Part shown: piece by piece, positions 10,088-10,825 of the stretch | Layout: every line of letters begins with the position of its first letter | How positions within the stretch are numbered: position 1 is the first letter of the stretch | Source: Escherichia phage KookSpook | Sequence record: PP925842.1 | Reading direction: 5' to 3' (one strand) | DNA: 64,000 nt | Notes under the pieces: model-generated | Told to the model about the DNA's origin: nothing | The model's input: only the letters and a program-made list of their open reading frames with translations | Database searches by the model: none | Translations under genes and position numbers: made by a program

Positions 10088-10825
10088 TGTGCAAATCCGA
10101 CATTTGCCCCAATGGATTACGTGCGGGCGTGTATGTGCGAATCCGACAATTTTTGGTGGTGTGCAAATCCGACCCGAAAAATTTTTATAGTGTGCGAATC
10201 CGACAATGAATTTTCCTAAAAACTCCAGCAATCACGAACTGCGTTCGAATCCTGTGGAATTTACTAGAGTATGTGCAAATCCGACATGTGTTAAGGTGTG
10301 CGAATCCGATGAAGTTTTTGTGAGTTCGATGAGAGGGTGTGTGATTGTATGAGTTTAGGTGAAAGAAGTTGGAGTGAAGAAATTCGAGGGAAAAACTGGA
10401 AGGTGCAGCGGTGTTGGTGCCTCAGCACCGGTTTGCTGCGTTTTTGGGGAAGAGTTGAGATAATTTGCGGAAATTTGAGATTAGTCGAGATAAAGTAAAA
10501 TTTTATTAGCTAAAGGGGGCAAAATAGCTTGACAAGTGAAAATTCTTGTGGCTCTAAAAACTCAGGCAAACATGGGCCTTCGGCCCGAAATAATGCTGCT
10601 ATTTTCAGGAAAGTAAAAGTTCCTAAAAACTTAGGCGTTTGTGCAAATCCGACCGATATTTCCTAGAAACACAATGTGCAAATCCGACAATAAAATCCAG
10701 AAATGTGTCTTCAAAAAATGTTTTCTAGAAATAACCGCCCTCCCTATAACCGCCCTATCTAGAAAAACCGGCCTAAGGCATGTAATATGAGAAGAAAACT
10801 GCCCTATAATGTGTGCAAATCCGAT
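10088..10825. repeat. dispersed direct-repeat array, 9 copies of GTGCRAATCCGAY plus TTCCTAGAAAC motifs
   Basis: copies near 10088, 10133, 10159, 10190, 10271, 10296, 10639, 10674, 10811; no ORF. Confidence 0.7.

Follow-up and report, generated by a model that had tools for sequence, protein, structure and literature searches.

We analyzed a 64,000-nt stretch of Escherichia phage KookSpook (PP925842.1; the whole of this stretch is called the window below), focusing on a non-coding block between the pre-early and early genes that carries nine copies of a short direct repeat. The window belongs to a T5-like phage. T5 halts the entry of its DNA after 8% of the genome and restarts minutes later, a behavior that has been a question since the 1960s, and in the literature of 2020 to 2026, papers of 2023 and 2026 included, the stop signal is still without a defined sequence. 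No open reading frame (ORF) longer than 77 amino acids occurs in 9626–11273, and T5 record AY543070 has no coding sequence annotated over the orthologous stretch, in agreement with an earlier note on this DNA that had described the region as ORF-free. Its flanking landmarks are the pre-early terminator (9630–9656), a GCGC motif (10081–10084), and the first early ORF (11274–12164, − strand). The GCGC motif follows a hairpin or palindrome, GCAGGGCAAATTGCCCTGC, and the two together (10064–10084, + strand) are the orthologue of T5 palindrome J and of the major single-strand nick site at 7.9% of the T5 genome.

A pattern search of the window returned nine exact matches to GTGCRAATCCGAY, all on the + strand and spanning 10089–10825 (737 nt), against a chance expectation of 0.14; none of 100 shuffled sequences gave nine, and no further site was found elsewhere in the window with up to one mismatch allowed. 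The base before each copy is T (9/9), which extends the unit to at least 14 nt. Copy 1 (GTGCAAATCCGAC, 10089–10101) lies 4 nt to the right of the GCGC nick motif and is followed on the same strand by copies 2 (GTGCGAATCCGAC, 10135–10147), 3 (10161–10173), 4 (10192–10204), 5 (10273–10285), 6 (10298–10310), 7 (10641–10653), 8 (10676–10688), and 9 (GTGCAAATCCGAT, 10813–10825), with start-to-start spacings of 46, 26, 31, 81, 25, 343, 35, and 137 nt. The irregularly spaced, nine-copy motif of 13–14 bp that the earlier note had proposed is therefore present in full and is non-random against the shuffles.

Comparison with T5 identifies these nine repeats, with high confidence, as the direct repeat D (DRD) array of Repeat Region 3, at the injection stop signal (iss) locus. 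The repeat region is ~86% identical to that of T5, for which AY587007 annotates "direct repeat D copy 1" to "copy 9" at 9672–10409 and a tenth copy at 12073, and AY543070 annotates 9140–10149 as "injection stop signal (iss)". In a pairwise alignment all nine window copies, from copy 1 to copy 9, are in register with the T5 copies; the GTGCRAATCCGAY pattern also recovers the annotated T5 copies, and the T5 spacing (46, 26, 31, 81, 25, 344, 35, 137) departs from that of the window only at the sixth interval. The two arrays agree in the 13-mer, in the nine positions, and in strand, and they share as neighbors the nick site, palindrome J, the terminal-repeat end, and the first early gene. They differ in the A/G choice of copies 2–4 and in the tenth copy, which in the window is degenerate (GTGCATTTCCGAC, two mismatches; 12497–12509, + strand) and lies at the position of T5 "direct repeat D copy 10". 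The alignment to the T5 injection-stop region, which had been proposed as a check, thus matched nine of nine copies to DRD, and the placement at the pre-early/early boundary also held, the array being in a non-coding block inside or beside the annotated iss. The array is accordingly already known, being named and annotated in T5, and the earlier note adds nothing to the published description. Davison 2020 (bioRxiv 10.1101/866236) names DRD, gives it no function, cites earlier primary descriptions, and reports the repeat regions to be conserved among 25 T5-like phages. What is added here, by sequence comparison, is a family-wide motif, a fixed genome end within the array in enteric phages, and an alternative role in packaging.

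The outlying tenth copy sits inside an ORF (12239–12853, − strand) with a weak match to DUF2201_N, and most relatives keep a copy at a similar distance. A single base separates the DRD core GTGCGAATCC from GTTCGAATCC of the tRNA T arm, so that the tRNA genes (30472–42345, − strand) supply most matches with two to three mismatches; this resemblance is probably a coincidence.

To place the array within the T5 family, viral contigs were scanned for one exact 14-mer and then re-scanned. DRD arrays were recovered in ~35 T5-like loci, always on a single strand, with spacings of 46, 26, 31, 81 or 71, 25 or 35, ~343, 35, and 137 nt (copy 5 lies 10 nt further left in some relatives, giving 71+35 in place of 81+25) and usually with one outlying copy 1.7–2.6 kb further right. 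The outlying extra copies of T5 and of Pantoea phage AAS21 are likewise to the right of the array and on its strand. In 19 close relatives the entire non-coding block is conserved, with conservation at its highest in 10500–10600, around the genome end. The distant relatives (Pectobacterium phage My1, Klebsiella phage JIPh_Kp127 and a related 123-kb contig, Pantoea phage AAS21, and Vibrio phages Bennett, Hades, and pVp-1) are more informative than the close ones: they carry 8–11 motif copies each, in one orientation and in an arrangement that varies from genus to genus. The pre-early protein A1 is only 31–35% identical in the Vibrio phages, yet the motif is retained, as AG + GTGCRAAWNCKAY in the Vibrio lineage and T + GTGCRAATCCGAY in the enteric phages. 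By this comparison the motif is kept in T5-like phages of five host genera, Vibrio included, and the site is asymmetric and fixed in orientation relative to the pre-early genes.

Retention of the motif while its surroundings and layout change points to a sequence-specific binding site. It is well supported by these alignments that the DRD units are predicted, same-oriented, asymmetric 14-nt sites ("iterons") of one family-wide DNA-binding protein. The suggestion of a protein-binding landing pad is likewise well supported, in that the predicted 13–14-mer site persists in one orientation in distant T5-like phages; the note had staked this idea on conservation of the repeats in related phages, and they are kept across the T5 family. 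A linkage of DRD to A1 was considered and rejected, being contradicted by a Rhizobium podophage that carries an A1 homologue and has no DRD sites. In the Vibrio phages, short tandem repeats of 15-nt or 8-nt units (Bennett 9040–9129, pVp-1 9523–9602) lie between the DRD array and boxes of LexA or DnaA type, in the place where T5 has its DRC and DRE repeats.

The array also brackets the terminal-repeat end. The genomes of T5, HASG4, L6jm, and DT571/2 terminate at a point homologous to 10554|10555 of the window (...TTGACAAGTGAAAATTCTTGTGGCTC|TAAAAAC), and BF23, whose ends were determined with PhageTerm, ends at the same point. The end of My1 maps to a homologous TTGACA element, which implies a repeat of 12,854 bp, and this is the My1 value quoted in Davison 2020 (bioRxiv 10.1101/866236). 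Since the window does not contain the right repeat, its repeat end is placed from those of its relatives: homology predicts that the terminal repeat, and with it the packaged genome, ends after 10554, at the close of a conserved terminus element (...GGGGGCAAAATAGCTTGACAAGTGAAAATTCTTGTGGCTC; 10488–10554, + strand). Within the region, DNA-level similarity to Klebsiella T5-like phages is confined to a stretch of ~85 nt at 10488–10571. The terminal repeat (~10 kb) would, by the same homology, end in the 343-nt gap, with six copies inside (copy 6 being the last) and three outside (copy 7 being the first). In Hades the recorded repeat boundary also falls inside the array, with six copies inside and two outside, whereas the boundary recorded for Bennett leaves the whole array to one side, falling in a tandem repeat of 15-nt units, and differs from that of Hades by ~350 nt; one of these two records is probably imprecise. 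The repeat ends of Kenya-K20 and Bennett disagree with the conserved terminus and were treated as imprecise. On the mapped ends, the genome end in the enteric lineages is at a fixed point inside the array.

A fixed end between repeat clusters invites a pac-like reading, in which the small terminase subunit, or an accessory protein, would bind the DRD clusters to either side of the cut, and these would direct the terminase to the right end of the terminal repeat. We consider this possible, if doubtful. P1 pac and SPP1 pacL/pacR are known to have repeats on either side of the cut, and the present repeats flank the genome end in the same sense: the right ends of six phages (T5, HASG4, L6jm, DT571/2, BF23, and My1) share one homologous point, in the large interval that separates copies 6 and 7, leaving 4–6 copies to the left and 3–6 to the right in Tequintavirus, My1, and Klebsiella phages, and the Hades boundary is also within the array. 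Bennett is either an exception or imprecise, and if its boundary, ~350 nt off that of Hades, is taken at face value, the position of the cut varies with respect to the array. Within the region, conservation is highest in the cut-site element, which is also the only stretch alignable to Klebsiella phages, and the small terminase subunit is 43–48% identical between Vibrio and enteric T5-like phages. Furthermore, the left end of T5 is injected first and would, by the last-in, first-out rule of other phages, be packaged last, with packaging starting at the right end.

Several features fit a packaging site less well. The copies nearest the cut are 87 and 244 nt away, the array is larger than classical pac sites, and in T5 the left boundary of the terminal repeat has no DRD-like site nearby. 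With only one non-coding gap between pre-early and early genes, a site located there would be close to the repeat end in any case, and we found no experimentally defined T5 pac site in the literature. The likeness to P1 pac, which we take to have hexamer repeats on both sides of its cut, and to SPP1 pacL/pacR thus consists of short repeats clustered either side of a fixed DNA end; the window array differs in its much longer span (737 nt) and in that its ends belong to a 10-kb direct terminal repeat and not to headful packaging starts. The stricter claim, that the DRD array is a T5-type packaging signal made of two clusters of small-terminase sites bracketing the right-end cut and not (only) an injection control, appears rather unlikely to us. 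Were it true, one nucleoprotein site would set the genome end and, in the next infection, the pause and restart of DNA transfer. A packaging role deserves equal consideration.

The reading that we favor, and hold tentatively, assigns the array to the restart of DNA transfer; taken as a whole, from T5 DRD identity through iteron-like sites to loading of the pre-early protein A2, it falls short of probable. The binder would most likely be phage-encoded, with A2, an essential pre-early DNA-binding protein, as the best candidate. In this scheme DNA transfer would pause just to the left of copy 1, and A2, made from the first-step DNA, would bind the same-oriented sites on the first DNA past the pause point. 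Its loading, together with A1, would then release the pause or pull in the next DNA, leading to second-step transfer, and the recurrence of copies 1–6 at the right end of the genome would simply reflect their location within the terminal repeat.

Position and genetics are consistent with this proposal. The first-step DNA ends at the 7.9% nick site (GCGC), and copy 1 begins 4 nt beyond it. A2 is reported to be essential, to bind DNA, and to be required for second-step transfer but not for host DNA degradation, and 13 of 17 pre-early genes are dispensable (bioRxiv 10.64898/2026.04.02.716235). The A2 of the window is 40% identical to that of Vibrio phage Bennett and is more conserved than A1. A structural model of A2 (predicted local distance difference test score, 84) shows a pair of small helical domains with a basic linker between them, and has its best structural matches, at weak scores, to the GcrA DNA-binding domain and to Myb-type domains. 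Domains of these types typically read asymmetric sites. The difference in flanking base between lineages (T in enteric phages, G in Vibrio phages) is consistent with a co-evolving, phage-encoded binder. Because of the pause- and nick-adjacent position of the array and the outlying copies on the same strand, we rank A2 slightly above the small terminase, by a small margin. The putative role of DRD in stopping or restarting transfer, as suggested in the earlier note, matches a general suspicion in the literature.

A number of observations weigh against A2 loading and restart. The array straddles the end of the terminal repeat, which the restart model leaves unexplained and which fits a packaging or terminus role equally. 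In Davison 2020 (bioRxiv 10.1101/866236) the calculated shear point is at ~9618 of T5, to the left of the array; the favored stop signals, IRD'spacerIRC' and DRE with DnaA boxes, are also to its left; and the model gives the other repeats, DRD among them, no role. A host protein that is not the same in Vibrio as in enteric bacteria would account equally for the flanking-base difference. In the 19 close relatives, conservation of the DRD columns is 0.92 against 0.87 for the rest of the block, a value equaled or exceeded by 882 of 5000 random placements; extra constraint on these columns is therefore not significant, the whole block being conserved, and the comparison says little. Finally, Proteus phage PL1 has A1, A2, and the terminase and no recognizable DRD array, which counts against the A2 and terminase candidates alike. 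In PL1 the equivalent block (5973–6640) holds six GTGGGMAW sites in 660 nt, all on the strand equivalent to that of the array, with one elsewhere in 29.7 kb, a cluster that may be a diverged or replacement motif.

Whichever protein binds it, the DRD array is the clearest candidate for a protein-binding element at the pre-early/early boundary, and it also brackets the terminal-repeat end. The identity of the binder would bear both on two-step transfer and on the cutting of the 10-kb terminal repeats, and the retention of the motif out to Vibrio phages and the fixing of the genome end within the array provide experimental handles.

The neighborhood of the array also suggests a host factor. DRD could comprise binding sites of a conserved host protein (DnaA-like or another) that would cause the pause by retaining the entering DNA at the membrane; we judge this unlikely. 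The pause requires no phage protein synthesis, and the neighboring block has sites of host-factor type, namely DnaA and DnaA* boxes in T5 and a near-consensus LexA-type box at 9767–9786 of the window, with such sites also retained in Vibrio phages. Read together with the T that precedes it, the A variant of DRD (TGTGCAAAT) matches a reverse DnaA box (TGTGNAWAA) at all but one position. The G variant, however, has two mismatches, the best-conserved half of the unit (ATCCGAY) falls outside any DnaA box, and the preceding G of the Vibrio motif removes the TGTG core (assuming the same DnaA specificity there). A reading of the array as a cluster of DnaA boxes (TTWTNCACA) was rejected on these grounds.

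The wider region bears on the same idea. Within 9000–11300 of the window there is no consensus DnaA box, only one-mismatch variants such as TGTAGATAA and GTTGATAAC, and this absence from the stop-signal region weakens a strict DnaA-box pause model for this phage. The array is to the right of the calculated shear point, and it gave no convincing match to the host consensuses that we take for CRP, matS, dif, marbox, or LacI-type half-sites. The DnaA boxes of the T5 iss (Davison 2020) are in the same non-coding block as DRD but lie 300–400 nt to the left, in IRD'spacerIRC', and the conservation pattern of DRD departs from the DnaA consensus. The LexA-like site itself, TACTGTATAAATATACAGTA (9767–9786), agrees at 19 of 20 positions with what we take to be the E. 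coli LexA (SOS) box consensus; it is the sole site of its type in the 64 kb and corresponds to T5 "palindrome D". Vibrio phages Bennett and pVp-1 retain ACTGTATATTTATACAGT beside TTATCCACA boxes. LexA is not mentioned in Davison 2020 (bioRxiv 10.1101/866236).

The iteron-like architecture also raises the question of replication, with DRD as an oriV-like set of iterons for a phage initiator such as the UL9-like helicase, a "replication origin binding protein"; we regard this as very improbable. T5 encodes a UL9-like helicase that has been proposed as its replication initiator, its origins being undefined at the sequence level (PMC3632103). Clustered direct repeats in one orientation beside DnaA-type boxes have the architecture of an origin, and the reverse complement of the G variant contains TTCGCAC, which we take to be seven of the eight bases of herpesvirus UL9 box I. 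An 8-mer match of this kind has a real chance of being coincidental, and the homology between the T5 protein and UL9 covers the helicase core only (389–533 against UL9 82–232), stopping short of the UL9 DNA-binding domain; the box I resemblance was set aside for this reason. The replication genes are in second-step DNA, and the ORFs around the array include no initiator gene beside it. Electron microscopy, as cited in Davison 2020, places T5 origins near the middle of the genome. The array resembles those that we take to characterize RK2 oriV and P1 oriR/incA in its asymmetric direct repeats, single orientation, irregular clusters, and nearby DnaA-type boxes, but differs from them in having no adjacent initiator gene, and the published T5 origins are elsewhere. 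A nick-related motif was rejected as well, there being no DRD copies elsewhere in the first 64 kb, which, from the reported nick positions of T5, should presumably include further major nick sites.

Other short elements share the block with DRD. The motif TTCCTARAAAC has four exact copies in the window, against 0.15 expected, all on the + strand: two of the form TTCCTAAAAAC (10213–10223 and 10620–10630) and two of the form TTCCTAGAAAC (10660–10670 and 10866–10876), together with a single inverted near-copy at 11044–11054. The second motif of the earlier note is thus real, but its count of at least six requires looser, CTAG-containing relatives. CTAG is enriched in the array region, with 8 in 461 nt against 4.4 per kb across the window. 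The repeats that the note had written as ataaccgccct are confirmed as a pair of AACCGCCCT, 15 nt apart at 10733 and 10748, with no other site in the window; the corresponding two ATAACCGCCCT units (10731–10756, + strand), 15 nt apart, also occur in Klebsiella, My1, and L122 phages. A further sequence, GTTCGAATCCTGT, is conserved between copies 4 and 5 (10243–10255).

The hairpin reported in the middle of the array exists, as GGGCCTTCGGCCC at 10574–10586 (+ strand), 20 nt beyond the terminal repeat, but the stability claimed for it proved only modest (5-bp stem, centroid −5.2 kcal/mol, z = −1.6). It is invariant in the 19 close relatives, Klebsiella phage JIPh_Kp127 has a hairpin of other sequence at the same relative position, and My1 has none at the matching position. 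A second hairpin followed by a T run (GCAGCGGTGTTGGTGCCTCAGCACCGGTTTGCTGCGTTTTT, 10405–10450; −10 kcal/mol, z = −2.5) resembles a + strand intrinsic terminator; it is situated in the gap between copies 6 and 7, ~110 nt to the left of the repeat end, and is relatively poorly conserved for the region.

Three further identities for the region were examined and rejected. As to structured RNA, an Rfam scan of 9000–12000 gave one chance microRNA match (21 bits against a 75-bit threshold), which lies outside the array. A promoter array finds no good sigma-70 match within the array, and the conserved TTGACA at 10530 is not accompanied by a usable −10 hexamer in the window phage, My1, or the Klebsiella phage. 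A Fur box for the neighboring DRC and DRE repeats would carry 4–5 mismatches in 19, no better than other AT-rich places in the window.

Over its first 6 kb, the closest database record to the window is MG065692.1, "Campylobacter phage C13", at 98.6% identity, and short "Listeria phage" records also match. These "Campylobacter" and "Listeria" host labels on T5-like records look wrong or due to contamination. The C13 record stops inside the DRD array, at ~10211 of the window.
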